A stretch of DNA of 64,000 nucleotides from a bacterium (GCA_963676395.1 OY781066.1:1664001-1728000), one strand, 5' to 3'. Positions 6,810-25,789 are shown, counted from the stretch's first letter. Translations and numbers: made by a program. Notes: a model not told the origin generated them from the sequence alone.

Positions 6810-8636
6810 TTAGCGCGGTGACAATAAAACCAGTCCCCATTTCTCTTTAACCGTTACCGCATCGTTAAAGGTTATGTCGGAAATCAGATCCTTACATTTT
6901 TTCATCTCAAGAGTGGATATGTCAAATTCATATTCATCATCCCCGTTATTGATCACAACAAAGATTGTCTCGTTCTTGTATTTGCGTCCAAAGATCAGGA
7001 CACCCTTGTCATCGTCGGTCAGCACGGTTTTGTACGAACCTATTTGCAGGGCTTTGTGCTCATTGCGAATAGCGATCAGTTTTTTATAATGATCGAGCAG
7101 ATCGTGGTTGACCGCCACCTTGTCCGGGGTGTGTTGGCTGCCATCGGGATTGCTAACTTCGTCGTCGTAATCAATATTGTCCCAGATCATAGGCTTGCGG
7201 CAGTCCGGGTCGTTGCCGCCCCACATGCCGGCCTCGTCGCCGTAGTAGATCATGGGCGCGCCCACATAGGTCATTTGCATGATGACGAACAATTTCTGCA
7301 GCGCAATGTCCTCCGCCTGTGGTTTTCGTGGAGAATAATCTGGATTATCGATGGGCTTGGACGCTCCGAAATAGTGACCCCAATCACGAAAATTACCAAT
7401 GCCGTTCTTGCGGTTTACAATATGCGAGCCAATGCGGTTGGCATCGTGCGAACCGAAGAGGTTCATCGAGACCTCCGCCACGCCCGCAGGATAGAGGTTC
7501 TGCGGTTCCTGCAGTTTTTTATCATACTCGCTGGCCATGATGCGGTTCTTGCCTTCATTGAAAAAGAATTCTGCGGAAGCGAAAGCGAAGTTGTAGTTCA
7601 TCTCCCCGTCGAATTCGTCACCCTGCATGTAGGGCTGCACTTGTTCCGGTGGGGCGATGATCTCGGCGGTCAAATAGGCCTCCGGATTGATAGACCGCAC
7701 TAGCTTGCGCCAATCTTTCCAGAAGGGATGCGCAATGCAGTAGGCCACATCCAGACGCCAACCGTCGATGCCGTGCCGTGTGCCCATGTCGCCGGGATTC
7801 ATCCAACGCCGGGTGGCGTTAAAAATGTAATCCTTCGGACCTGCGACGATGCCGTTCTCATCTTCGCGCAGTTCGGGCAGGGACTTCACGCCGAACCAGC
7901 CTTCATAATCGAAGCTCGTTCCTTTTTCCTTGTTGTTCCAGGATTTGATGATAAACCAGTCCTTATAGGGCGAGTTCTGCTGCTTCTCGATCACGTCCTG
8001 AAAGGCGAAGCTGTGCATGCCCATGTGATTGAAAACCCCGTCGAAAATGATCTTCATGCCGCGTTGGTGCACCTCATTGATCAATTTGAGCGCGAGTTTG
8101 TCGGCTTGGGTCCATATCCATGTAGAAGGATCCAAAGGATTTTCTTCGGCCATCAGTTGGCGATCACCCTCGGGGTCGGGACCAAAATTCGGGTCGATAT
8201 GATGATAGCTTTCGCCGTCGTATTTATGTAGGGAGGGAGACACGAAGACCGGATTCAGGTAAATGGCCGTAATGCCCAGATCCTGAAGATAGTCGAGTTT
8301 ATCAATGACACCCTGTAGGTCCCCGCCGTAGCGACGGCGCAGCAGGTGCTTCCACAGTTCCGGCTCGTCGTTAGTTTTTTCATAGTCCTGTAGTACATAC
8401 CAGTCAGATCCCCAGGGATGGATGTGCCATTCCTTAGGTGCATCCTGCGGGTCCGCGCCGAGAATATCTTTGACGGTCGGGTCATTGGACGGATCCCCGT
8501 TGTGGAAACGCTCCGGAAAAATTTGGTACCAAACGACGGATTTGGCCCATTGTGGGACGAATTCTTTGTTTTGCATGCTGCACCCTACATGAAGTAATGA
8601 GATGATTATTAAGGCAAGATAAACGGATTTTTTCAT
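6810..8636 (-). CDS. GH13 alpha-amylase / cyclomaltodextrinase-neopullulanase-like lipoprotein
   Basis: Likely start MKKSVYL with lipobox HVGC; WYQIFPERF, GGDLQG, DGVFNH, DGWRLDVA, AEI, SHD, YYGDE, DPDCR. Confidence 0.92.
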   Translation of the reverse strand: MKKSVYLALIIISLLHVGCSMQNKEFVPQWAKSVVWYQIFPERFHNGDPSNDPTVKDILGADPQDAPKEWHIHPWGSDWYVLQDYEKTNDEPELWKHLLRRRYGGDLQGVIDKLDYLQDLGITAIYLNPVFVSPSLHKYDGESYHHIDPNFGPDPEGDRQLMAEENPLDPSTWIWTQADKLALKLINEVHQRGMKIIFDGVFNHMGMHSFAFQDVIEKQQNSPYKDWFIIKSWNNKEKGTSFDYEGWFGVKSLPELREDENGIVAGPKDYIFNATRRWMNPGDMGTRHGIDGWRLDVAYCIAHPFWKDWRKLVRSINPEAYLTAEIIAPPEQVQPYMQGDEFDGEMNYNFAFASAEFFFNEGKNRIMASEYDKKLQEPQNLYPAGVAEVSMNLFGSHDANRIGSHIVNRKNGIGNFRDWGHYFGASKPIDNPDYSPRKPQAEDIALQKLFVIMQMTYVGAPMIYYGDEAGMWGGNDPDCRKPMIWDNIDYDDEVSNPDGSQHTPDKVAVNHDLLDHYKKLIAIRNEHKALQIGSYKTVLTDDDKGVLIFGRKYKNETIFVVINNGDDEYEFDISTLEMKKCKDLISDITFNDAVTVKEKWGLVLLSPR

Positions 8637-10180: not shown

Positions 10181-10374
10181 GTATTCCTTCCGATAGGGTG
10201 ATCTCTTTACTTATTTACGATATTTTCGCTTTGCTTTTCTTGATCGAAATTTAGGGAAAATAATTTGAATGGCAATGTGTTATTTGGGGCCCGGAAAAAA
10301 CGATCAACTATTAATCGAAGAATCAACGAAGCTTTCTTGACCCACGAAGCTTTAGCGTAGTTGCAAGCGAAGGA

Positions 10375-10458
10375 GAACGATAAAGGATGAATGATAAAGG
10401 ATGAATGATAAAAGATGAATGATAAAAGATGAATGATAAAAGATGAATGATAAAAGAT
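10375..10458 (+). repeat. 14-bp tandem repeat (GAAYGATAAARGAT) x6
   Basis: Units at 10375, 10389, 10403, 10417, 10431 and 10445. Confidence 0.92.
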
Positions 10459-10640
10459 GAACGATTAATACGAAGAAGCTCCAGAGGAGCGACATCTTTT
10501 CTTTATTAAGGTAAAAAGATGCCACTCCTACGGAGTTTAAAATTATTTGGATACATAATTCTCTACAAAGATGTCATCCCTACGGGATTTAGCATCCGAT
10601 CAATCGATGAAGCTCCGACGGTTTTGTAAATATTTAACTG

Positions 10641-11243
10641 TCAATTGTTAACCGCTTTTCCTACAACCTGTGTATACACCACCTTCTCATGCTCACTCAA
10701 CCCCATGAGCTTGTGCAGTCCCTCGCGATCGACCAATCCCAGCACTGCGGTGCAAAGCTTCGCGGCCGTACAATAGAGGTAGACATTCTGGCTCATAAAA
10801 GCCGCATCGGCCGCGCTGGTGTACCACTTGCGCTGTTCGTCCGAATAGACCGGGTTAGTCATCTTGCGGTAATCGCTGACGTAGATCAGTCCCACAGGCG
10901 CCGACTGCATCATCTTCTGCGTGCCGATATGCGGACGCAGGTCCTGATCCAGCACCCCGACCAATTGATGCGCCGTTTCATCGTAGCGGTACAGACCCTC
11001 GGGCAACGCGACATAAACGCTGATCTCCTGGGAATTACAGGAGGACGGCGCCGCGCGCTTGCTCTTGGCACGTTTGGTCGCCTCGCAGGTGATCCCGCAG
11101 GCCGCCCACATAAGATTGCTCAGATCCTGCTCACCGACCGCCTCAGCGGCAAAACGGCGCTTGGTTCGGCGTTCTTTGATCGCCTTCATTAAGGGGAAGG
11201 AGAGGTTTGTTTGGGGCGGGGGAAGGGGGATGATGTTTTTCAT
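10641..11243 (-). CDS. Nitroreductase family (SagB/ThcOx-like) oxidoreductase
   Basis: PLMKAIKERRTKRRF, LSNLMWAACG, RAAPSSCN, SQNVYLYC; GC-rich. Confidence 0.88.
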   Translation of the reverse strand: MKNIIPLPPPQTNLSFPLMKAIKERRTKRRFAAEAVGEQDLSNLMWAACGITCEATKRAKSKRAAPSSCNSQEISVYVALPEGLYRYDETAHQLVGVLDQDLRPHIGTQKMMQSAPVGLIYVSDYRKMTNPVYSDEQRKWYTSAADAAFMSQNVYLYCTAAKLCTAVLGLVDREGLHKLMGLSEHEKVVYTQVVGKAVNN

Positions 11244-11378
11244 AGTTGAATTGATTCCTTGTCTAGTTTCACAATCTTAATTATTAATTCTTAAATTGTC
11301 AATCGTCCTTTTTCAATTGTCAATTGATTATAAGGGGTTTAAAATGATGAGGCAAAGGAAGATTTAAATTGTATGGAG

Positions 11379-11517: not shown

Positions 11518-13899
11518 TCAATTCAAAGATGATTCAACTCCAATACTGGATAAAAGAGCTTCATATTGATCAATATCTTTTTCTTTAATCTTTTTTAAAA
11601 TAAAAGAAGCAGTTTTTTTCATTTCAGGTATATCTATTGGTTTCATACTTCTTTCAAATAAGCCCTCCAAATGAGAAAATTCATTATTAATACGTTCAGT
11701 CATGCTAGAAGCTTGATGATTATCACCGAAAAATCTTGATAATTTATCATCTTGTTTCTTTGCGTTTGGATATTTATAGAAAAGAAAAGCTTCTAAGAAT
11801 TTACGTGCATTATTCCCAAAATTGTAATACAGGCTATGTTGTTCTACATCTTCGGCATTTGCATTAGCACACAAATAAATTTGATGAAACAAATAATTAA
11901 ATTCTGTAACATAGTTTTTTAAATACTTTGGCATAGGTTCAAGGTTACTAATTTCATTTTCTCTTGAGATTATGAAATAACCTCTTTGTGTACAATCTGA
12001 TGCTCCTGGAAGTCTTTTTAAATATTTTAAAAAATCAAGATTATGTGTAGATATAAATAGTTGTTCATAATTTTCTTTTGAAACGATTTCTGAATTAATA
12101 AGGCTATAAATAAAAAATATATGATTACTATCTAAACTAGAAATTGGATCATCTATCCAAATTATTGGTTTGATCCCCATAGTATCAATATCTTCAAGTT
12201 TAGCCATAAAATAACAAAATGCTATCAGATTACATTCACCTTCGCTCAAGTGATAAGCTTTTTTTCCATCTCTTATAACTTCAAATTTAATTTTTTTATC
12301 ACCAATTTGATTCTCTTCTTCTAAAGCTTGAAGTGAAAGATAGTTATGACCAAAGAAATTATTTAGATAATCATTGACCTTTAAAGCCCCATTTTCTTCA
12401 TCTTTTAGTAATCTTTCTTTATCATTTATAAGAACAATTAGGTTTTTAATTTTTTCTTCAACTTCCTCTTTTTTCTTATTTTCAGCTTCTAAATTACTTC
12501 TCAACCTATCAATTTTACTAATTTCATTCTCATACTGAATGGTTTTAAGAAAATCAAATACTTCTTTTAATCTAAGTAATATTTTAGATTTATCTTGTTC
12601 AGTTTTGAGTTTATTACTATAAGAGTTTGCTGCTAATCTCATTTTTTCAAAAATATCCCAACACCATTTAAGACGAATACTATAATCAAATATTTCACTA
12701 AAAACTCCTTCATTAAGTACATCATCTTTTCTCTTATTTAGCTGTATTATTAAGTCATCTAACTCTTTAATTATTTTATCAACAATTTGAGATTTTAATT
12801 TTATTAATCGATTAATGTCCGAATGATAGCTTGAGTAAAAGTTATCTTTATCAATAGGGAGTGTAGTTTTAAGATTAGCTATTGTATTATTAATTTCATT
12901 AATTAATTTTTCAATTTCATTTTCTAATTTTTCCGATTCTTCATCAAAATGACTATCTAATTCATTCCACCTTGTTTGTGAGATAATATTTCCACAGAAT
13001 GAACATTTATTTGAAATATTTTTGTGTAGTTGCCTACCTTCTTTAACCCAACGATTCATTATTGAATCTTTTACTAATTGTTCAATCTTATTTGAATTAC
13101 TTATTGGTTTTGTAATTAGTATTTTTGCTTTTTCGGACAATAAGTTTATGCTAAAATCTGGACGAGAAACAGCTCTAATATCTTCTTTTTTTCTTTCTTT
13201 CAATAATTCTTCAATTGAAATAACTTCTTCATCTTTTATAACAGAATATGAAGGATCGAGCACTTTTTTAATATCTAATTGAAGTTTGTTGATATTATAA
13301 TTTTGATCTCCGAACTTATGTGATTTATATTTTATTCCGTCAGGATTATTGATGGCTTTGTTCTTTAATTTTCGGTTTAGCTGTTCATATTCAGTTTCAT
13401 AAATATTTTTTGCATTTATAAAATTATTAAGTGAATTTTTTAAATCAAGATATAATCCTGATTCCTCATCAATCTTATTTTCACCTAATTCCTGTTTAAG
13501 TTTTTTAATTCCAACTTCTATATCAACGTTATCTCCAAGAATTGCAAAGGGAGAAATACTATCTTCGGAATTGCTCAAAAAACGAAGTTTTTCTTTTATA
13601 AAATCTTCATTAAAAACTCTAATATTTTTTCCATGATTTGTTAAATCATGATGTGTAACATTTACATTATCATTAAAACATAATTCAAATTCTGGATTGA
13701 CATATTTATCTGATATCTTACCTGTTTCTAGTGCACGTACAATTCTGGTAAGTGTGGTTTTGCCAGAGTAATTTCTTCCGTAAATAATATTTATGTTTTT
13801 AAAATTCTCAATTCTACCTGCTGAATCAACAACTGAGTTGTTCCAAACAAAATTTTGAAACACGGCAAGATTATTAATTGATTTTAATTTTGTTATCAC
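11518..13899 (-). CDS. RloC-like AAA_13 ABC-ATPase with zinc hook and C-terminal HEPN (putative anticodon nuclease)
   Basis: Walker A GRNYSGKT, coiled coil with CSFC hook, signature LSEGE, Walker B/D-loop IWIDDPISSLD, STH, HEPN-type RKFLE...RINNEFSH; GTG start with GAGG RBS. Confidence 0.85.
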   Translation of the reverse strand: MITKLKSINNLAVFQNFVWNNSVVDSAGRIENFKNINIIYGRNYSGKTTLTRIVRALETGKISDKYVNPEFELCFNDNVNVTHHDLTNHGKNIRVFNEDFIKEKLRFLSNSEDSISPFAILGDNVDIEVGIKKLKQELGENKIDEESGLYLDLKNSLNNFINAKNIYETEYEQLNRKLKNKAINNPDGIKYKSHKFGDQNYNINKLQLDIKKVLDPSYSVIKDEEVISIEELLKERKKEDIRAVSRPDFSINLLSEKAKILITKPISNSNKIEQLVKDSIMNRWVKEGRQLHKNISNKCSFCGNIISQTRWNELDSHFDEESEKLENEIEKLINEINNTIANLKTTLPIDKDNFYSSYHSDINRLIKLKSQIVDKIIKELDDLIIQLNKRKDDVLNEGVFSEIFDYSIRLKWCWDIFEKMRLAANSYSNKLKTEQDKSKILLRLKEVFDFLKTIQYENEISKIDRLRSNLEAENKKKEEVEEKIKNLIVLINDKERLLKDEENGALKVNDYLNNFFGHNYLSLQALEEENQIGDKKIKFEVIRDGKKAYHLSEGECNLIAFCYFMAKLEDIDTMGIKPIIWIDDPISSLDSNHIFFIYSLINSEIVSKENYEQLFISTHNLDFLKYLKRLPGASDCTQRGYFIISRENEISNLEPMPKYLKNYVTEFNYLFHQIYLCANANAEDVEQHSLYYNFGNNARKFLEAFLFYKYPNAKKQDDKLSRFFGDNHQASSMTERINNEFSHLEGLFERSMKPIDIPEMKKTASFILKKIKEKDIDQYEALLSSIGVESSLN

Positions 13900-13927
13900 A
13901 AAAACCTCTTAAAATATTTGGACTAAT

Positions 13928-14950
13928 TTATTTAACATAAATATCTGCTCTTCTATTTATGCCAATAGATTCTTCCTCACCTTTTATTGTGTTAATTGGA
14001 TTATTTTCACCATATCCAAAGATATTTATTCGTTGCTTATTGATGTTGTTTTTGGTTAAGTAATTTGACACAGACTTGGCACGTTTAATTGAGAGAGAAT
14101 CATTATATATACTGTTTCCCAAATAGTCCGTATGTCCAATAATCCATATTTTTTCCTTAGGAAATTTGTTTAAGTATAAAACAAGGTTATTCAATTTGTT
14201 TTTTGAAAATTCAGTTAAATTGTAATCATTATATCTGAAATATATACTTGTAATTGGATTATTACTTTCGTTAATGTAGTTACAATTAGATTCAATAAAT
14301 AATTTATCATTAACTAAATCAATTTTTTGCGGTTTATTATCGACTAATTTTATATAATCAACTATAACTGGCAAAATATTACCCAAAGCAATAATAATTG
14401 TCATAATAATCGTAAATTTTTGATTTCTAATAATTTTTAGTTGTTGTTTTTCTTCCTCTAATTCTTTTTTTAGTTGTTCAGTAGTTTTATAGCCGTTTTT
14501 AACATAGCTATGAAGCATTTCAGTTGGTTTGAATTTTTTTCTATTGAGTAAATGAAGTGATATTTTAAGATCTCTATCTTTAATTGGATGTTCAATATAA
14601 TCTAAATCGACTATCCTATTACCTATGTGATCAAAATTAATATCATCATACAATATTAAATAGCTATTATTTGACAAATAGTCTATCAAGCTTACAATCA
14701 GTATAAGTTTTTCTGTTATATCTTTTAGTAAAGACGCTATTCCTATTGGGCCATAATTACTTGAAAGCTTTTCAAAATACTTATTTTCAATTTTTAATAG
14801 GCAATCTTTTTTCGGTGTAAATTGAATATATACATGTGGTAGGAATACATCTTCAAGAATATTTTCAAGAACATTTAGTGAACCTTTTTTATTATCTATT
14901 TCAATAATATTTTCAATTATTTCTTTTTCGAAGCTTGAAAATTCTCTCAT
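13928..14950 (-). CDS. Unknown N-terminal domain + single TM + OmpA/MotB-like peptidoglycan-binding domain
   Basis: TM FTIIMTIIIALGNILPVIV; IYF, GHTD, NDSLSIKRAKSV, GYGE, NRRADI. Confidence 0.85.
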   Translation of the reverse strand: MREFSSFEKEIIENIIEIDNKKGSLNVLENILEDVFLPHVYIQFTPKKDCLLKIENKYFEKLSSNYGPIGIASLLKDITEKLILIVSLIDYLSNNSYLILYDDINFDHIGNRIVDLDYIEHPIKDRDLKISLHLLNRKKFKPTEMLHSYVKNGYKTTEQLKKELEEEKQQLKIIRNQKFTIIMTIIIALGNILPVIVDYIKLVDNKPQKIDLVNDKLFIESNCNYINESNNPITSIYFRYNDYNLTEFSKNKLNNLVLYLNKFPKEKIWIIGHTDYLGNSIYNDSLSIKRAKSVSNYLTKNNINKQRINIFGYGENNPINTIKGEEESIGINRRADIYVK

Positions 14951-14972
14951 TTTTAAAACCTTACTTAATTAA

Positions 14973-15521
14973 TTATTTTTTAAAAAAACTTCTCAAATTA
15001 AATCCAATTCCACAAAAGCTCGGTTCCAAAATAACACCATTGAGTAATTTTGCACCAAAGCCTTTTCTCATTTCCTTATTAATATTAAAATTTTGTAAAA
15101 TTTTCTTATCTTTTATATCAGAAAATATATTTGAAATCAGGGAAATTACATCTTGTTCTGAATTGCAATGTTTTTTAATTGGGATTAATATAATTTTCGA
15201 TTCTATGCTATCGATTTGATTTATATATTTATCTTTGAATGTATGTGGATTATCTCTTGTTATCAATATTGCAGGGAGGATATCTTTTCCTTTTTCTCCA
15301 TTAATATGATGCCAAGACATAATCTCATTATCAACATGACTTCCTACTGTACCTGTAATAAAAACAGAATTAGTTTTAGAGGCTTCATTTGAAATTTTAT
15401 TGAAGTTTTCCCAAATAATATTTGATAATGGTCCTTTCCAGCCATAATCAAGTAAATACAAATAATAGTCTCGGGTTACATTTTGTGGAATTTCATTTAA
15501 ACTGTGAATCATCAATCCCAT
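14973..15521 (-). CDS. Hypothetical protein (182 aa), first gene of the AT-rich unit
   Basis: Clean ORF with GGAG RBS; YYLYLLDYGW, LPAILIT, ILEPSFCGIGFNL. Confidence 0.75.
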   Translation of the reverse strand: MGLMIHSLNEIPQNVTRDYYLYLLDYGWKGPLSNIIWENFNKISNEASKTNSVFITGTVGSHVDNEIMSWHHINGEKGKDILPAILITRDNPHTFKDKYINQIDSIESKIILIPIKKHCNSEQDVISLISNIFSDIKDKKILQNFNINKEMRKGFGAKLLNGVILEPSFCGIGFNLRSFFKK

Positions 15522-15897
15522 ATTTTCTCCAATTAATAGTTTTATCGATTAACAATAACCATTTGCTATATTCTAAAATTATTTCATTTATGTAATAAAT
15601 CATCAATTACAATTTTCTCTATTTGTTTTTAGTTTCTTTCATGTAAACTATTGTAAATATGTGAAATTAACAAATAGTTTTTCTCATAATAGCCTGAAGG
15701 AAAGGGGAATCTGAGAAATCATCACATGTAGCCTCCCTATAGCTTTGGTAAAGGTGTGGTTAATACTGAACTATTCCAGTAGTACACGGCTTTTCGAAAA
15801 TTTAATACTCATACGGCTCAAGAAGAACGAGAGTATGAGGGTACGAGTGCAGGAGAGTGAGAGAGTACGATGAATAAAGATTTAGAATTTATTTCTT

Positions 15898-16016
15898 CAA
15901 CCCCTCCGGGGTTGTGATTTGAGTGGTACCCCGGCTATACTGTTCTTGAACCCTTTCAGGGTTCTTAATGATCTTATGATATAATAACTTTCGATATATA
16001 ATCCCGACGGGGTTGA
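15898..16016. repeat. Cluster of short REP-like palindromes
   Basis: CAACCCCTCCGGGGTTG, AACCCTTTCAGGGTT, AATCCCGACGGGGTT. Confidence 0.7.
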
Positions 16017-16962: not shown

Positions 16963-17439
16963 TCATTGTCCTTTTGTCCGGTTCAGTTCGTCGAAAATAG
17001 TCAGTATCTTGCTGATAAAACCCGGATCGCCATAGAAAGTATATTTAGCTTTTTGGATTTCGGGGTAATAAATGAAATCATAACGCGTCCCACCGCTCTG
17101 TCCTTTGTCGCTGTTCAGCATGGCCATGAGTGAATTTGACAGCCGCGATGCTTTTTCGGAATCCTGATCTTTGATCTCAACGACAACGGAAGCATTGATC
17201 TGTTCTTTGCTTGACGCGTTGCCGGACGTTATGGACGGCAGCTGGTCGTTGGATAACTCGGCATGACAATAGTTTTTAAGCTCCTCTTCGCTTACCATCC
17301 AGGAGCGGCCGATCTTTTTTGCCTTGATCTTGCCCTCTTTGATAAAGCGGATAATGGTCTTCGGGTGAAGTTTTAAAATGCCCGACAGGTCTGAGACCGA
17401 GTAAAGTTTAAGTTCCATATACATCCTTTTCGTTTTCAA
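16963..17439 (-). CDS. Excisionase/MerR-like HTH (HTH_17) DNA-binding protein; real start may be 17418-17424
   Basis: LYSVSDLSGILKLHPKTIIRFIKEGKIKAKKIGRSWMV; abuts the hydrolase gene. Confidence 0.82.
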   Translation of the reverse strand: MKTKRMYMELKLYSVSDLSGILKLHPKTIIRFIKEGKIKAKKIGRSWMVSEEELKNYCHAELSNDQLPSITSGNASSKEQINASVVVEIKDQDSEKASRLSNSLMAMLNSDKGQSGGTRYDFIYYPEIQKAKYTFYGDPGFISKILTIFDELNRTKGQ

Positions 17440-18983: not shown

Positions 18984-19943
18984 TCATGATGAAAATAATT
19001 GTTTATAATGCTTTCTGACAGTGTTTTGATATTTCTGCTTCCCGAGGTCTGATAAAAATGATTTGTCGATAAATTTTAACATCTCTTCTTCTTTTTCCCG
19101 ACTTTGTTCTATGATCGTATCTAAGATATTATCTTTAATATTCCAGCGTTTTCCCAATTCAATGAAATGCTTTATGGAGTATTCATAAGGTGTTGTTAAT
19201 AAATGATCCTTTGTTCGTTCCATTTCTTTAAAAAGGTTCATGGCTATTTGGGTGTCATCAATATGAAGTTTTGTGTTCATTAGATCATAAGAAGGGGAAA
19301 GGATCATATCGCCGTTTTGTGATTCAAGAAGTGAAATATTTTTCAAGTGGACATCACCATTTCCGGTCAAAAAATTGAAGATCAGTATTTTTATAAATTT
19401 AATTTTATCAAGTGGATTCAGGTTATGACCAACGTCTTCATACGTTGCGGAATTATACTTGTTAATTCCAGAATTGCTGATACTTAGTATAGACGTAAAA
19501 TCCTCCTGGCGCAACGGGTCGCCATTATTATCTCGGTCAAATCTGCGGGTTAGATACACCGGCTCGCCATCGGCAAAATACATGAAAGCACATTTTGCAG
19601 TATCAATATTGAATATTTGGTCAGCCATTTGCATCGTCAAGTGTTCATTGGCGGGAGAATCTAAATACAGATCCCATCTTGAATCGAGGAAAGGTTTAAC
19701 GATATACATCGATTCCAAATCAATATTCGGCATAAGTAATTTATTTTTATTTCTTCCTATAAACCCTTTTGCCTGAACGCCGGAAAGGCTAAATCCAGTC
19801 GGTCGGCCGATGTTTCGTTTTCTAATATCATTCCAATTAAAATCAAGCGTCACCGGAACTTTTGATCTGTCAAAAAGCTTGCTTTCACATGCTGAACAAA
19901 AGCCATCTACATTGTTTTTTAAACATCCATGACAATATGACAT
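18984..19943 (-). CDS. HipA-family Ser/Thr kinase toxin (HipT-like, C-terminal domain only)
   Basis: FSLSGVQAK loop, ANEHLTM, TRRFDR, GNGDVHLKN, LSPSYDL; N-terminal CxxC...CxxC. Confidence 0.9.
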   Translation of the reverse strand: MSYCHGCLKNNVDGFCSACESKLFDRSKVPVTLDFNWNDIRKRNIGRPTGFSLSGVQAKGFIGRNKNKLLMPNIDLESMYIVKPFLDSRWDLYLDSPANEHLTMQMADQIFNIDTAKCAFMYFADGEPVYLTRRFDRDNNGDPLRQEDFTSILSISNSGINKYNSATYEDVGHNLNPLDKIKFIKILIFNFLTGNGDVHLKNISLLESQNGDMILSPSYDLMNTKLHIDDTQIAMNLFKEMERTKDHLLTTPYEYSIKHFIELGKRWNIKDNILDTIIEQSREKEEEMLKFIDKSFLSDLGKQKYQNTVRKHYKQLFSS

Positions 19944-20266
19944 TAGTTTTCATCTTTCTTTATTGTAATTGCCCCTATTGTATCATGACCACACGTATTA
20001 ATCAATAAATTCCAATCATCATGAATATCAATTCCCAAGGCTTTACATTGCATTTGCCTGTTATAGCCCTCTGAAAGCATTGATTGAAAAAAAGGAAAAA
20101 GCTGTTTAGCATGATATGTTTTTTGAGATTTTGGTAAATTGATTGAAATAGGATAAAGTTCATTATTTCTTATAAAATCATCATCGTATTCAAAGTGATA
20201 ACCAGTTTCATCCCGCCATAATAAGCCGGCAAGATACTTGTCTTTATAAATGACTTTGGCTCTCAT
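19943..20266 (-). CDS. HipA N-terminal (couple_hipA, HipS-like) protein
   Basis: AGLL, YHFEYD, PISINLP, LFPFFQSMLSEG, DTIGAITI; its stop overlaps the kinase start. Confidence 0.88.
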   Translation of the reverse strand: MRAKVIYKDKYLAGLLWRDETGYHFEYDDDFIRNNELYPISINLPKSQKTYHAKQLFPFFQSMLSEGYNRQMQCKALGIDIHDDWNLLINTCGHDTIGAITIKKDEN

Positions 20267-20471
20267 TATGCTTTCTTAACTCCAATTTGATCTCCAGATC
20301 CAGGTAATAGAATATTTCGTTAAGCGTTTCAAAAGAAGGATTTGCCTTCCCATTTTCGATAAGGGATAATGTTACAACCGTCAATCCGGTATAAGCGGCA
20401 AGTTCTTTTTGTGAGATGGATAAGACCTTCCGCCTTTCTCTAATCTTCTTTCCTAATTCTCGTTTGTTCAT
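20244..20471 (-). CDS. XRE-family HTH regulator (HipB-like)
   Basis: IRERRKVLSISQKELA...LSLIENGKANPSFETL. Confidence 0.9.
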   Translation of the reverse strand: MNKRELGKKIRERRKVLSISQKELAAYTGLTVVTLSLIENGKANPSFETLNEIFYYLDLEIKLELRKHNESQSHL

Positions 20472-20479
20472 TGTGCCAG

Positions 20480-20690
20480 TTAAATTATAATTAAACTATT
20501 ATTACGAATATAATTGTTTGGGTGCTCTATGTCAATAATATTTAATTATAATTAAAATATTATATCAAACAACACTGTTTTGGTCTAAATGTTAATAATA
20601 TTAAAATATAATTAAACTATTATCGTAATAATGATGTTTGCCTGTAATATTGTGTGGAATATTAAAATATAATTAAAGTATTATAACATA
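20480..20690. promoter_or_regulatory. Four phased palindromic operators upstream of the hipB-like gene
   Basis: TTWAAWTATAATTAAA cores with TATAAT at 20486, 20547, 20607 and 20668; perfect palindrome at 20541-20556. Confidence 0.7.
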
Positions 20691-20714
20691 TTATATTCCC
20701 CATCCCAGGAATGC

Positions 20715-20904
20715 ACGCACCGGCTCTTGGCGCGCTCGGTGGCCTCGTAAGTAATGCCGCAGGCCGCCCAGAGCAGATTACTTAGATCCTGCTCGCCGAC
20801 CGCCTCAGCGGCAAAACGTCGTTTTGTCCGGCGTTGGTTGATCGCTTGCATGAGGGGGAAGGTGAGGTTGGTTTGGGGCGGGGCAGAGACATAATATTTT
20901 TTAT
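20715..20904 (-). pseudogene. Second, longer 5' fragment of the nitroreductase gene
   Basis: Collinear with 11060-11243 for about 60 codons; start mutated to ATA, 1-bp deletion in codon 9, similarity ends after AKS. Confidence 0.92.
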
Positions 20905-20986
20905 GAATGAGTTCCTTATTTTGTTACAAGAAAGAGAAGGGGTTTAAAATTGATGGTTGGAGAGTTAGGAGTCAGAGAAGTGATAT

Positions 20987-23900
20987 TTATTCCTCTCTTA
21001 TAAACTTCAATTCTGGTAAAACTATTCTAAACTCTTTATCCAATTTATCTTTATGCCAAAATATAATATAATTAACAAGAGCTTCTGAAAGCTTATAACC
21101 TTTGTTTTTGTAATCCTCGATTTTCTTTTTAAAGCTTCTTGAAAATTTTAGCACGCAATTTCCATCTTTATCTGAACAGCCATCATCATTAACTATAAGT
21201 TCATCACCACCTTTAAGCGTGGAAATATATTTCTGTCTTTTAATAAAATAATCTAACCAAATGTCTTTATGTGATAAATGTAATAGCAGAAGATTTGATG
21301 TTTCGTATGGGGTATCATCATACTTGCGTTCAATATTATTACAAGAATAATTGTCTAAATAATTCCCATTTAAATGAATGGTTAGATTTTCTTTTGCTCT
21401 AGTCATTGCGACATATAATTCTCTTTTGATAGCGTCAGTACGTGGAGAAATATTTCTTAGCATCAAAAACACATTATCAAATTCTTTACCCTTTGCTTTA
21501 TGGTTTGTTGAAACTAATATTGTTTCTCTAATGGTACTAATAAAATCCTCAAGCTTTGATTCTTTTACAAAGACCTCAAAATCGGATTTGAATTTCTTTT
21601 CCGGATTACTAAGTTCAAATGCTTTAATCAGATGAATACATATTTCAATTTTTGAGCTTTCTTTATAGTTATTCCATAGTTTTCTCTTAGCTGATTTCCA
21701 GTCCTCTGGGGATATCGTGTATTTGTCTTCCGAGAAATTAAGTTGATTAATAAAATATCTTACTTCAAGTATGTTGTGTAAACTAAACCAATCGTTGCTT
21801 TGGATTAATTTTGCTTTTATTCCTTTATTAAGTAATAGTCCCGTTATTTGTAAGGCTTCGGAATTCTCATGAGTTAATATGCACGTGCTCCCATTTAGGT
21901 CAGAGTTAAGTATGTCCATAATTACCGGTTTCGATAGATTTGGACTGGAATATTTTATTATCTTAAGTTTCCCGTTTTCACTTGAGTGAGGAATGATCGG
22001 ATTTGTTTTAAGTCGTTTTTGGATTCCCGTAGCAAACTGATTGGTAAATTCAACAAGGTTGGCCCTACTGCGATAATTTTCTATTAGCTCAATCTTTTTA
22101 GCATTTTGTTCAACAATGAATCTTTCAAGATATTCAGAACTAGCTCCCCTAAATTCATAAATATTTTGATCATCATCGCCAACAGCAATAACTCTCATTC
22201 CTTCATTTTTATCCATTAATATTTTAATTAACTCAAATTCATGCTTGTCCATGTCTTGGGCTTCATCAATTACCAAAACGGTTTTTGTAATTCGGTTTGA
22301 TTCAATATCTCCAGATCTGATTTTCTCAATCGTGTTTTTTATTATTGTTTCTGATTTCTCGATTGAACCGACCTTTCCTAGTAGATCAAAACAATATGAA
22401 TGAAAGGTTTTTATTTCAATATATGCTGCAGCATTTCCTATTAAAGTAAATAATCGTTTCTTGAACTCTGAGGCTGCTGCTCGTGAAAAAGTTACCATCA
22501 ATAATTGTTCGTGTTTAACATCTTCCATTAATAATAATGAAGCAAGCTTATGTACCAAAACTCTGGTTTTACCACTTCCGGGACCGGCTGTTACAGCAAT
22601 ATATGGAGAACTATTATCATTGATAATGCTGAGTTGTCTAGGGGATAACTCACCGAATAGTTGGCTGAATTTTTCAGGGGTGATATTTTGCTTTATTTCA
22701 TTTTGTCTGCTGCCCTTAAAATATTTATTTAGAAATGAAGAATAATTAAGTTGAAAATAATCTTCGACAAATTGTAGTGCCGATTTGTAATCCTGAATCA
22801 TTTTTTTTGCATATTCACCTACAATATGAATTTGCTGAACTCTCTGCTCATAGAATTGATTTAGTTTTTTATAATCTTCTGCCTTATATCTAACTTTATT
22901 GTCTTTTTCAAGTCGTTCAATTGTGAGTTTATTATATATGACTAAAAATCCACCTTCAATTTTTATAGCATCAATTCTTGAAAGATAGAAGAGGGCATCT
23001 TCAACATCCGAAATCGAAATTTGGAGTTTAAAAAGAGAGTTACTATTCTCATATTGTTGCTTTAATTCATGAACGGAAAACTCAACGTATAGGTATTCTT
23101 TGTTAGCATCCGATCTAGAAAGGTTTTGACTGCTTTTCCCATATAGATAATCGGTTATAAAGCGAGCTAAATCATGTCTTCTTTTTAATCTATTTCTTAA
23201 TTCATGTACCGGATAATTTGATACAACAGAAAGGTGGTTATTAGAAGTGTTACTTTGCTTTCTCTTAAGCCAGTTCTTAATCACCCAAAAGTTTATGATC
23301 GTTTTTAGCTTGTTAGGTGAAATATCTGTGCAGCCATTTTCTTCTGCCAATTCATTTAGCTCTTTAATGTGGAAAGATTTTTCCTCTTCATCAAATTGAG
23401 TTAATAAGAATTTCTCTATTTTGCTAATTGAATTAACAATTCTAAGTGATCGGTTTTTATTTTCTCCTTGCTTAATAAAAGCTGTCAAATCTTTTGTATC
23501 TGCTAATATTTTTTCTTCTCGTAATAAATTTATTGCATTGATCACATCTTCTTTTACAATGCCTAAATGGTCTGATATGTAGTCTACTCTCGATTCTGCC
23601 ACTTCGTCAGTAGCTTGTTTTCTGCTTTTACTGGAAAATAGTTTTTTTATAATTCTGACAGCATCTTGTCTTTGTTTGGTGTTGAACTTTTCCGACACAT
23701 TAATTTTGTCAATAGCCTCTTGAGCATTTTTTGTTAGAATACTATTAGCAAATATTCTAGGTGTATTTTGTCCGCGTTTTAGGTAACCTGACTCTTCTAA
23801 GGCTGAAATTGCAGTTGTCACTCTTGTCTCGATCTCAACGACATTATCATCCCATCCGGCTTTCCTTGCAATTTCCAGGGCTGAATTTGAAACACTTGAC

Positions 23901-25789
23901 CTGAATTTAGTTATTTCCTTAATAGCAACCCATATCTGCTGGATCTCCTTAATATTTAACTTAGTCTGGTTAAGTAATATGAAGTGCTTGCTAAGATCTT
24001 CCTCATTAAAAAGTACATAACAATCAGCTGATATTTTTTCATCCCTTCCAGCTCTGCCAGCTTCTTGGACATAGTTTTCAAGAGAATCAGATAATTCGTA
24101 ATGAATCACCATACCGACATCTTTTTTATCTACTCCCATACCAAATGCTGAAGTAGCAACCATGATATCAACATCGCCTCTAATAAATGCATCCTGATTT
24201 TCTGATTTCTCCTGCTTATCCATTTTACCATGATAGGGTTTTGCAGAATATCCATCCTTAGAAAGTTTTTCAGCAATTTGATAAGCTCTTTTAGTACGAG
24301 AAACATAAATAATGGTTGGACAGTTTTTCCCGTCAATGAGATTGCGTAGACTCTCATACTTATCTACTTCCGTAGCCTTAGGGATTACCTTGTAATGTAG
24401 ATTAGTACGGGAGGCATTTGAGCTAAAGATTTCTAGTTCTAAGTCTAATTTATCTTTAAAATAATCCTTAATATCTTGAATAACATTTTGCTTGGCAGTT
24501 GCTGTAAAACAAGAAACCGGAATCGGGTTTTTAAGTTTTTTCTTTTCTTGTAATGATTTTATGAAATCACCTATGTATAGATAATCAACTCTAAAATCTT
24601 GACCCCAAGCAGAAAAACAATGTGCCTCATCAATAATGAAACGTACAACATTTCTACCAAGTAATAAGCGCTCGATTGATCTTGATCTTAAAGATTCTGG
24701 TGAAATATAGAGAAGAGATGTTGTGCCATTTTCGACTCTTTCAAAAGATTTTCCTCTTTCGATGGGATCCAGCAAACCGTTTATTGTAACTGCTTCGGTG
24801 ATATTTGCTTTTTCTAAATTATCTACCTGATCTTTCATCAAAGATTGCAATGGAGATATGACAACAGTTAAGCCTTTAACATATTCACCACTCATTAACG
24901 CAGGGACTTGAAAGGCTAAAGATTTTCCACCGCCGGTTGGAAATACCGCAATTAAAGATTTATTTTTTATCGCTGCCTCAACGGCTTCTTTTTGTAGTTC
25001 TTTGCCGCCAAAACTTCTGTATGAAGAATATCCGAAGTAATTTTTTAATGCCATATCTGCATTAAGAAAACTGTTGCAATATCGGCATCCCCTCATGCAG
25101 GGATTATTTCTTAATAAATACATTATCCGTTCAATATCAGGATAATTCTTGATCACCCAGGGAGGTGTAATAGAGTATCGGCTATCAGTATTTATTAAGG
25201 CTAGAGAATAAGCTAATTCAACAGGATATTCTTTTATTGTTTTTCTTAATTGGAAATTTTGACAAATTTTATCAAAGAATTTATTCGTTATTAGATTTTC
25301 AATATTTCGGTTACCAGGAAAATATTCTACAACATCAAAGAAAGCTGAAAATTCCATTTTATCCTTGAGTAATGTATAATATATTTGTTTTAAGTCGTTG
25401 TCAAGTTTGTGAAATGCTTCGACCTCATCGCGGAAGAGAGCTCTTGCTTTTATAGCATCATTCAGAGGATTGTTTAGTTCTTCTGTTTGTAGTTTGTCGT
25501 CTTTTAAAAGTGCATGATATGGCTTTTTAGGAAATAGTAGTGGAGATAAAAATAAAGTATCAATGGCTTTTATTTTGGATACATTTATATCTGTTGCTTT
25601 TGCAATAAATTTCAAGTCATGATTAATGATGTTGTGCCCACAAATAAATTCATTTTGGTTAATAAATGCAAGAAGTACTGACATGGATTTAGAGTGGAAT
25701 TTCATTCCATCATTAGATACTCCACCTATATCAAGTATTTGTTGGCTTTTGGCTTCTACTTCGGTATCTATGAAGGCAATTTTTTTCAT
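20987..25789 (-). CDS. Multidomain helicase: DEDD-like exonuclease + RecQ (SF2) + UvrD/Rep (SF1) fusion
   Basis: FIDTE/GHNIINHD/DTL; PTGGGKS, DEAH, TATA, ATSAFGMG, QEAGRAGRD; AGPGSGKT, DEAQD, VGDDDQNIYEFRGA, ENYRS, HKAKGKEF, YVAMTRA. Confidence 0.92.
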   Translation of the reverse strand: MKKIAFIDTEVEAKSQQILDIGGVSNDGMKFHSKSMSVLLAFINQNEFICGHNIINHDLKFIAKATDINVSKIKAIDTLFLSPLLFPKKPYHALLKDDKLQTEELNNPLNDAIKARALFRDEVEAFHKLDNDLKQIYYTLLKDKMEFSAFFDVVEYFPGNRNIENLITNKFFDKICQNFQLRKTIKEYPVELAYSLALINTDSRYSITPPWVIKNYPDIERIMYLLRNNPCMRGCRYCNSFLNADMALKNYFGYSSYRSFGGKELQKEAVEAAIKNKSLIAVFPTGGGKSLAFQVPALMSGEYVKGLTVVISPLQSLMKDQVDNLEKANITEAVTINGLLDPIERGKSFERVENGTTSLLYISPESLRSRSIERLLLGRNVVRFIIDEAHCFSAWGQDFRVDYLYIGDFIKSLQEKKKLKNPIPVSCFTATAKQNVIQDIKDYFKDKLDLELEIFSSNASRTNLHYKVIPKATEVDKYESLRNLIDGKNCPTIIYVSRTKRAYQIAEKLSKDGYSAKPYHGKMDKQEKSENQDAFIRGDVDIMVATSAFGMGVDKKDVGMVIHYELSDSLENYVQEAGRAGRDEKISADCYVLFNEEDLSKHFILLNQTKLNIKEIQQIWVAIKEITKFRSSVSNSALEIARKAGWDDNVVEIETRVTTAISALEESGYLKRGQNTPRIFANSILTKNAQEAIDKINVSEKFNTKQRQDAVRIIKKLFSSKSRKQATDEVAESRVDYISDHLGIVKEDVINAINLLREEKILADTKDLTAFIKQGENKNRSLRIVNSISKIEKFLLTQFDEEEKSFHIKELNELAEENGCTDISPNKLKTIINFWVIKNWLKRKQSNTSNNHLSVVSNYPVHELRNRLKRRHDLARFITDYLYGKSSQNLSRSDANKEYLYVEFSVHELKQQYENSNSLFKLQISISDVEDALFYLSRIDAIKIEGGFLVIYNKLTIERLEKDNKVRYKAEDYKKLNQFYEQRVQQIHIVGEYAKKMIQDYKSALQFVEDYFQLNYSSFLNKYFKGSRQNEIKQNITPEKFSQLFGELSPRQLSIINDNSSPYIAVTAGPGSGKTRVLVHKLASLLLMEDVKHEQLLMVTFSRAAASEFKKRLFTLIGNAAAYIEIKTFHSYCFDLLGKVGSIEKSETIIKNTIEKIRSGDIESNRITKTVLVIDEAQDMDKHEFELIKILMDKNEGMRVIAVGDDDQNIYEFRGASSEYLERFIVEQNAKKIELIENYRSRANLVEFTNQFATGIQKRLKTNPIIPHSSENGKLKIIKYSSPNLSKPVIMDILNSDLNGSTCILTHENSEALQITGLLLNKGIKAKLIQSNDWFSLHNILEVRYFINQLNFSEDKYTISPEDWKSAKRKLWNNYKESSKIEICIHLIKAFELSNPEKKFKSDFEVFVKESKLEDFISTIRETILVSTNHKAKGKEFDNVFLMLRNISPRTDAIKRELYVAMTRAKENLTIHLNGNYLDNYSCNNIERKYDDTPYETSNLLLLHLSHKDIWLDYFIKRQKYISTLKGGDELIVNDDGCSDKDGNCVLKFSRSFKKKIEDYKNKGYKLSEALVNYIIFWHKDKLDKEFRIVLPELKFIREE

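Follow-up and report, generated by a model that had tools for sequence, protein, structure and literature searches.

Positions 11518-15521 of a 64,000-nucleotide (nt) stretch of bacterial DNA (GCA_963676395.1 OY781066.1:1664001-1728000; hereafter the window) carry three closely packed genes, here termed A, B and C, and raise the question of whether these neighbours form a single anti-phage system or have come together as separate cargo. An earlier annotation made from the sequence alone (the sequence-only reading) had suggested the former and envisaged an envelope sensor coupled to a tRNase. The interpretation favoured here, at a probability of about 70%, is that gene C is a stand-alone RloC-type abortive-infection gene and that A and B are two unrelated accessory genes upstream of it, within a horizontally acquired islet of foreign composition. 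A and B appear to belong to separate, unnamed and sporadic families that are conserved partners neither of RloC nor of each other, and they are most likely independent cargo that ended up beside RloC either in a donor or in this island; they would be expected to act independently in vivo. The three genes are as follows:

14973-15521, minus strand: gene A, 182 amino acids (aa), ATG start
13928-14950, minus strand: gene B, 340 aa, ATG start
11518-13899, minus strand: gene C, 793 aa, GTG start

Gene models and co-occurrence of the three families

A, B and C are co-oriented open reading frames (ORFs) separated by 22 nt between A and B (14951-14972) and by 28 nt between B and C (13900-13927). All three are real genes with sound models, as the homologue family of each aligns from residue 1. 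The block spans 4,004 nt and has a GC content of 25.6% compared with a genome average of 38.1% (2,335,625 bases), which makes it the lowest-GC 4-kb window of the genome; among 4,664 sliding windows a single one is that low, at the block's own position. Within the window, GC falls to 24-26% over 12-15 kb against 36-46% in the flanks. The individual genes resemble each other in GC content (A 0.270, B 0.245, C 0.259) and in GC at third codon positions (A 0.197, B 0.185, C 0.150). Rfam searches gave no match between 10 and 18 kb of the window at E<=0.1, and promoter and terminator scans of the locus returned signals that did not rise above shuffled background. A look-up of sequencing runs listed one DNA run with this sequence, probably that of the source, and none of RNA.

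The evidence that carries the favoured interpretation comes from the relatives of each gene. Profile hidden Markov models (HMMs) of A and B were made from the family alignments and run on six-frame translations of all fetched loci, alongside tblastn. Neither an A- nor a B-family gene was found within 5 kb in any of 79 loci of C relatives by either method. No B or C gene lies beside A in 13 A-family loci (tblastn and HMM); for the 12 of these in the genome collection, the tblastn search extended to about 7 kb. The six B-family loci likewise show neither A nor C beside B (L093-L097 by tblastn, L115 by HMM). Across all loci, including the later L111 and L115, the A and B HMMs match only their own families. 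The same holds genome-wide, where A and B occur together in none of five whole genomes: two have A without B (G404, G405) and three have B without A (G401-G403), while AAA_13 genes are present in two of the five, on other contigs. A conserved three-gene system was rejected since no two of the families co-occur in the 79, 13 and 6 loci, and on this comparison it must be considered unlikely. The sequence-only reading was right about the tight spacing, common orientation and high AT content of the three genes, and its coordinates and gaps were borne out. Its three-gene unit of envelope sensor and tRNase did not hold up: it had taken a lack of co-occurrence elsewhere as the mark of independent captures, and in every sample drawn the families are never together.

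One locus (L041) contains the only OmpA match among the 79, 251 nt upstream of the RloC relative. This gene was considered as an equivalent of B and dismissed, as it encodes a 787 aa outer-membrane-type protein composed of DUF5723, TSP_3 and OmpA domains.

Each of the families is also thinly spread. The A family is found in one of 401 genomes sampled from the phylum and the B family likewise in one of 401, each time this genome only; gene C is found in one of 33 genomes of the taxonomic family. In another class 400 genomes were scored, and the B family turned up in two, of which the query's own genome is one. On this distribution A, B and C are accessory genes, probably acquired horizontally. 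In tblastn searches of 50,697 phage records neither A nor the N-terminal domain of B had a match, and among 72,556 plasmid records the B domain had none and A a single one, on a Vibrio chromid. Back-translated pattern scans for the B family yielded two short metagenome contigs from the third alignment and nothing in viral contigs; two other alignments held no stretch conserved enough for such a scan, and a scan of genome contigs based on the relative P0056 was set aside, having found only an unrelated OmpA domain.

Gene C, an RloC-type candidate nuclease

Gene C is predicted to encode a full-length RloC-type zinc-hook ABC-ATPase with a C-terminal HEPN-type nuclease tail, in agreement with the sequence-only reading. 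It matches Pfam AAA_13 (6.6e-131; residues 26-769 on profile positions 8-713 of 713) and, over practically its whole length, the PADLOC single-gene candidate model PDC-S06 (PDLC04887; E 1.3e-298; residues 1-789 on profile positions 1-786 of 790). PDC-S06 is, in the passages that mention it (PMC11514479; bioRxiv 10.1101/2025.01.08.631966), a prediction label only. The PADLOC model of PrrC matches weakly and only in the tail (5.9e-10, residues 507-774), and a sequence search of the PDB found no solved structure that matches gene C. The 79 fetched relatives are 45-64% identical to gene C. Conservation was read from 68 full-length sequences, namely the window protein and 67 of the 79 loci, the other 12 being left out for matches that fell short of the stretch from residue 3 to residue 780. 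The following motifs were located:

13756-13779, minus strand: Walker A, GRNYSGKT, residues 41-48 (K47 invariant in 68/68)
12994-13005, minus strand: CxxC hook, CSFC, residues 299-302 (both cysteines invariant in 68/68)
12148-12249, minus strand: ABC signature LSEGE, residues 551-555, and Walker B IIWIDD, residues 579-584 (S552, D583 and D584 invariant in 68/68)
11671-11805, minus strand: candidate nuclease triad R699-x3-E703-x39-S742-H743 (motif search and 68-sequence alignment)

The ATPase motifs GRNYSGKT, LSEGE and IIWIDD, together with STHN (residues 617-620), which holds the H-loop histidine, are invariant in 67-68 of the 68 sequences. The CxxC lies halfway between Walker A and the signature at 551, where the apex of a hairpin would be expected; the insert that carries it comprises about 500 residues. 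The triad region also fits the HEPN Rx4-6H motif (R736-x6-H743), and R699, E703, S742, H743 and R736 are each kept in 67 of the 68 aligned sequences, one sequence being gapped.

These features correspond to the definition of RloC given in parts of the original description by Davidov and Kaufmann (2008; PMC2610378), which comprises the motifs of an ABC-ATPase, a CXXC hook carried on a coiled-coil insert, and the triad Arg-X3-Glu-X36-52-His, whose histidine often follows a serine. The same passages present RloC as a wobble-nucleotide-excising anticodon nuclease, give the hook and triad of G. kaustophilus RloC as C291, R692, E696 and H737, and state that GUG starts are common among RloC genes. 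Gene C is of the same length class, has the ABC motifs, the central CxxC, the R-x3-E-x36-52-(S)H triad and a GTG start, occurs in stand-alone form, and has its motifs at positions nearly collinear with those of the G. kaustophilus protein. It differs from its 79 relatives in that two unrelated genes lie upstream at operon-like spacing, an arrangement seen at none of their loci. The tRNA-Lys anticodon nuclease PrrC employs the same kind of ATPase and nuclease logic; however, PrrC is described in PMC2610378 as lacking the coiled-coil/hook insert and as always hsd-flanked in a type Ic restriction-modification (R-M) locus, whereas gene C has the CxxC insert of about 500 residues and no R-M gene in the block or the scanned flanks.

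The anticodon-nuclease activity of gene C and the trigger for its release can be proposed from characterised RloC. By this analogy a Rad50-like ABC-ATPase with a zinc hook would keep the HEPN-type anticodon nuclease at the C-terminus inactive until a cue from DNA damage or a phage frees it; the freed nuclease would then cut tRNA anticodon loops so that translation stops in the infected cell. A survey of HEPN proteins (PMC3710099) places the tails of RloC and PrrC in the HEPN superfamily and states that RloC is held inactive by the ATPase domain at its own N-terminus. As a further RloC/PDC-S06 gene within a mosaic island of defence type, gene C is ordinary.

The ORFs that neighbour the C relatives were clustered and one representative of each larger cluster was scanned. 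Singletons account for 266 of the 295 clusters, and the others include HsdM-like proteins (10 loci), HsdS (9 and 3), SbcD-like (7) and SbcC-like (6) proteins, RhuM (5), a tyrosine integrase (4) and DUF2130 (4 and 3); HsdM/HsdS are carried by about 10 of the 79 loci. This variety agrees with PMC2610378 and PMC3710099, which present RloC as acting autonomously and as occurring in R-M loci only in some cases, a linkage that the former reports as infrequent (8 of 72 specimens). At seven of the 79 loci (L062, L069, L071, L078, L081, L089 and similar) an SbcD-like phosphoesterase gene lies about 44 nt downstream, usually followed by an SbcC-like ATPase gene. The closest RloC relatives, 63% identical and from Bacteroidota (L013, L014, L015, L018), are situated 120 nt downstream of a tyrosine integrase gene with HTH_17 and DUF3408 genes beyond, which suggests that they are cargo of integrative mobile elements.

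Genes A and B and the neighbours of their relatives

PADLOC, one of the tools that the sequence-only reading had named, recognises only C as a defence gene; A has no match in it, nor in Pfam, NCBIfam or PHROG, and B only weak ones to ZorB. A word search with A gave 47 proteins at E<=1e-3 including its own, the others being 44-69% identical, with lengths of 104-224 aa. The family occupies 12 loci in the genome collection, spread over at least eight phyla-level groups, and one further locus on a Vibrio chromid. It has an invariant N-terminus, MGL.IHSL, and invariant D25, W28, H62, S69, H71 and P83. The AlphaFold2 (AF2) model of A reaches a predicted local distance difference test (pLDDT) score of 79.7 and a predicted template modelling (pTM) score of 0.81. 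Foldseek returned nothing for this model at E<=1e-3. In a VIA-align search the top 50 are filled by thioredoxin-fold domains at Z scores of only 4.2-6.2, which the tool rates as middling. The only cysteines of A are at 119 and 170, so that it lacks the CxxC active site of catalytic thioredoxins, and the similarity in fold is moderate only. A is modelled as a cytosolic thioredoxin-fold protein of a strongly conserved, unnamed family of about 180 aa. The ESM Atlas holds only unnamed clusters for A.

No family recurs among the neighbours of A relatives. At L001 the A relative has an AbiD homologue immediately downstream, and the defence island around it also contains type III R-M genes, PDC-S02 and a DrmD-like helicase. 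Others have a TIR_2 gene (L007) or transposase genes (L002) nearby, adjoin a GNAT gene (L111), or sit without a gap between the housekeeping shikimate-pathway genes for chorismate synthase and aroK/aroB (L005). Outside the L001 island none of 21 scanned neighbours matches PADLOC at E<=1e-5. In a Kofleriaceae metagenome-assembled genome (L009, 7001-8347) an A-family domain (residues 1-177) and a PNP_UDP_1 nucleosidase-type domain (249-439) form a fusion within one ORF, and the latter also matches the PADLOC models 'Effector PN-superfamily' and PDC-M60C. The word search found no longer fused forms of A, which is weak evidence given that L009 holds one. At L010 (7001-8677) an A-like ORF ends at 7313-7315 and is continued, without change of frame, by a 453 aa ORF with no Pfam match; a single stop codon may have interrupted a fusion here, or the sequence may be in error.

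Gene B encodes a 340 aa protein that is divided into three parts:

14483-14950, minus strand: N-terminal domain, residues 1-156, of an unnamed family, predicted winged-helix-like (AF2, VIA-align, phmmer)
14360-14416, minus strand: predicted transmembrane (TM) helix, residues 179-197, FTIIMTIIIALGNILPVIV (Kyte-Doolittle 19-mer maximum 2.48)
13931-14263, minus strand: OmpA-like peptidoglycan-binding domain, residues 230-340 (Pfam OmpA, VIA-align)

The Pfam OmpA match covers residues 237-326 (2.7e-21), and the domain carries the motifs GHTD and LSIKRA. The TM segment is the sole hydrophobic segment, contains no Asp or Glu, and is enclosed in a long helix at 157-204 of the AF2 model, which was computed from a 31-row alignment with a mean pLDDT of 87.7 (92-98 over residues 1-200). 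VIA-align, run against 48,161 chains, superimposes the C-terminal domain on Pal/OmpA-like proteins (Z 18.1, root mean square deviation 1.9, 110 residues aligned to 4g4v), and residues 1-156 on winged-helix proteins of the MarR, HxlR, AF1382, ScpB and Csa3 types (Z 8-9.7, about 70-80 residues aligned, spread over 1-156). The tool cautions that Z values under 8 may stem from nothing more than a shared arrangement. The sequence-only reading had described a TM-OmpA protein with an additional N-terminal domain of about 175 aa and no MotA/ZorA partner; this description stands, and the structure comparison that it proposed for the N-terminal domain points to a winged-helix-like fold. In the simplest view B crosses the inner membrane with its one TM helix and has its winged-helix-like domain in the cytoplasm and its peptidoglycan anchor in the periplasm, a bitopic topology that is deduced from the need of the OmpA domain to reach the cell wall.

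The N-terminal domain of B has no sequence-level match in Pfam or NCBIfam, the NCBIfam matches of the protein as a whole all being below cut-off (best 90.4 bits against 175), and its clusters in the ESM Atlas are unnamed. A word search of 5.8 billion proteins with the first 230 residues returned only the query. Exhaustive phmmer searching brought in 89 further cluster representatives as distant relatives at E<=1e-3, of which 33 also pass E<=1e-10. Only three of the 89 (P0055, P0056 and P0063) contain an OmpA domain, and the remainder end in short variable tails past the hydrophobic helix.

Like ZorB and MotB, B combines a single TM helix with a following OmpA-like peptidoglycan-binding domain, and it matches ZorAB chains structurally at Z 8.3-9.2. 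The PADLOC ZorB matches are weak (best 1.6e-07) and limited to residues 151-337, which comprise the linker and the OmpA part. MotB/ZorB subunits carry a conserved acidic residue in the TM helix, which B lacks; it also has a 156 aa winged-helix-like cytoplasmic domain that is absent from ZorB, and no ZorA/MotA-type family was detected in the block itself or in 13 ORFs scanned around it (8.9-32 kb). A ZorB-like stator was ruled out by the TM helix without an acidic residue and the missing partner among these ORFs. The order of a DNA-binding-type cytoplasmic fold, one TM helix and a periplasmic domain is reminiscent of the ToxR/CadC-type regulators, which are membrane-tethered winged-helix regulators. 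B differs from these in that its periplasmic part is an OmpA anchor rather than a sensor domain, and no sequence relationship was found in Pfam or NCBIfam. With MarR/HxlR-type winged helices the resemblance is at fold level only (9-11% identity).

The neighbours of B relatives, like those of A relatives, share no family with each other. They include an integrase gene (L094), weak TIR-like and Mrr_cat genes (L095), a GmrSD-like gene (L097), and an integrase fragment with an IS3 element (L115). Among 18 scanned neighbours only an AbiU homologue (L093) and a weak mad8 match (L096) were found by PADLOC at E<=1e-5. The former (1.3e-21) lies on a 1.7-kb metagenome contig (L093, 104-1739) and begins 155 nt downstream of the OmpA-type relative P0063, a protein of 336 aa.

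As a by-product the comparison yields two unnamed families: that of A, which is strongly conserved over 180 aa, has an invariant N-terminus, a thioredoxin-like predicted fold and one PNP-type effector fusion, and that of B, which would consist of membrane-tethered winged-helix-like proteins, a minority with an OmpA anchor.

Alternative readings and the surrounding island

Several observations weigh against an RloC gene with independent cargo. The gaps of 22 and 28 nt, the common strand and the near-identical composition fit a single transcription unit acquired en bloc, and operon partners are often functionally linked. The OmpA-type B relative upstream of AbiU, the A relative upstream of AbiD and the A domain fused to a PNP-type effector domain (L093, L001 and L009) hint that A- or B-like genes may accompany abortive-infection effectors. 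Furthermore, the closest relatives are poorly sampled, as the 60-69% identical A homologues and the OmpA-type relatives of B (P0055 on a 4.5-kb contig, P0056 on a 63.9-kb contig) are on metagenome contigs outside the compared loci. The same tight spacing on one strand, an extreme composition that suggests joint acquisition and these loose parallels would also suit a lineage-specific defence operon of all three genes, or of B and C, in which B senses envelope disturbance or incoming DNA at the membrane and releases or restrains the RloC nuclease, with or without A. A DNA-binding partner is conceivable, since the RloC ATPase is DNA-dependent according to the title and abstract of PMC3458546. Such an operon is nevertheless improbable, because no co-occurrence is seen in the 79, 13 and 6 loci or in the five whole genomes, RloC relatives are full-length and motif-complete in the absence of such partners, the envelope anchor is not a family trait of B (OmpA in 3 of 89), and the TM helix of B lacks the acidic residue of stator-type sensors. 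In this genome the positive evidence for a coupling of A or B to C consists of their adjacency and shared composition.

The short distance of 22 nt from A to B, and the rarity and patchiness of two families that occur in variable or mobile regions, might alternatively reflect a two-gene module of their own, for example a membrane-tethered regulator with a thioredoxin-fold partner, that was inserted upstream of an unrelated RloC gene; with the HMMs finding no B in 13 A loci and no A in six B loci, and five genomes that carry one without the other, this is very unlikely. It is hardly more probable that A, B or both have no connection with defence. They could then have been carried along by chance, B as a transcription regulator bound to the membrane or as an envelope protein, A as a redox-fold protein of housekeeping type. 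The shikimate-gene context and the GNAT neighbour of A relatives, as well as the scarcity of PADLOC matches among the neighbours of both families, would agree with this; the defence island at L001, the PNP effector fusion at L009, the AbiU neighbour at L093 and the proximity of A and B in this window to RloC, a HipA-type toxin module and a DpdF/GajB-like helicase argue against it. More speculatively, and unlikely to much the same degree as the lineage-specific operon, A and B could be two undescribed portable accessory modules for single-gene abortive-infection effectors, i.e. RloC here, AbiU at L093, AbiD at L001 and the fused PNP nucleosidase at L009. B, tethered to the membrane and anchored to peptidoglycan, would then be a DNA-binding sensor that signals to the effector when phage DNA enters or the envelope is damaged, and A would be a thioredoxin-fold adaptor or sensor domain. 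If it were true that A or B modulates abortive-infection effectors, this would represent a new type of sensor or adaptor.

The setting of the presumed RloC gene and its cargo is a larger, variable mosaic region with genes for a nitroreductase (56.7% GC), an alpha/beta-hydrolase, an HTH_17 protein and a helicase, as well as for a split HipA-type kinase accompanied by an Xre-type helix-turn-helix (HTH). Two direct-repeat copies were found:

11057-11262, plus strand: left copy, about 200 nt, comprising the 5' end and upstream region of the intact nitroreductase gene
20719-20919, plus strand: right copy, about 84% identical, a displaced 5' fragment of the nitroreductase gene

The right copy corresponds to a pseudo-fragment of 56 aa, whose ORF runs on the minus strand (20681-20851). 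Between the two copies lie about 9.7 kb of mosaic sequence with C, B, A, the hydrolase, HTH_17, DUF805 and the HipA module; this looks like an insertion with target-end duplication, but the segment contains no integrase. In a congeneric genome (G082) the nitroreductase orthologue is in a different context, no empty site was recognisable at DNA level within the genus, and no island-end repeats were found that would delimit the 4-kb A-B-C block itself. The HTH_17 protein (16963-17439) was considered as a counterpart of the HTH_17 beside the closest RloC relatives and found to be unrelated.

The split HipA-type toxin module (18984-20471, minus strand) consists of a HipA_C protein of 319 aa, a Couple_hipA N-domain protein of 107 aa and a 75 aa ORF that by eye resembles an Xre-type HTH, an arrangement that appears HipBST-like. 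Beyond the right repeat lies a 1,600 aa fusion of DEAD/Helicase_C and UvrD-type helicase parts (20987-25789, minus strand; 32% GC) that matches the PADLOC profiles of DpdF (8.5e-95) and GajB, and is possibly another defence gene of the island. Interspersed intergenic repeats of 40-90 nt, present in many copies in most genomes of the genus, are found at about 11275-11335, 15890-15970 and 10328-10376, two of them flanking the A-B-C block. A tandem array of a 14-nt unit (AAGATGAATGATAA-like) extends over 10356-10467, where six overlapping 42-nt copies were reported.

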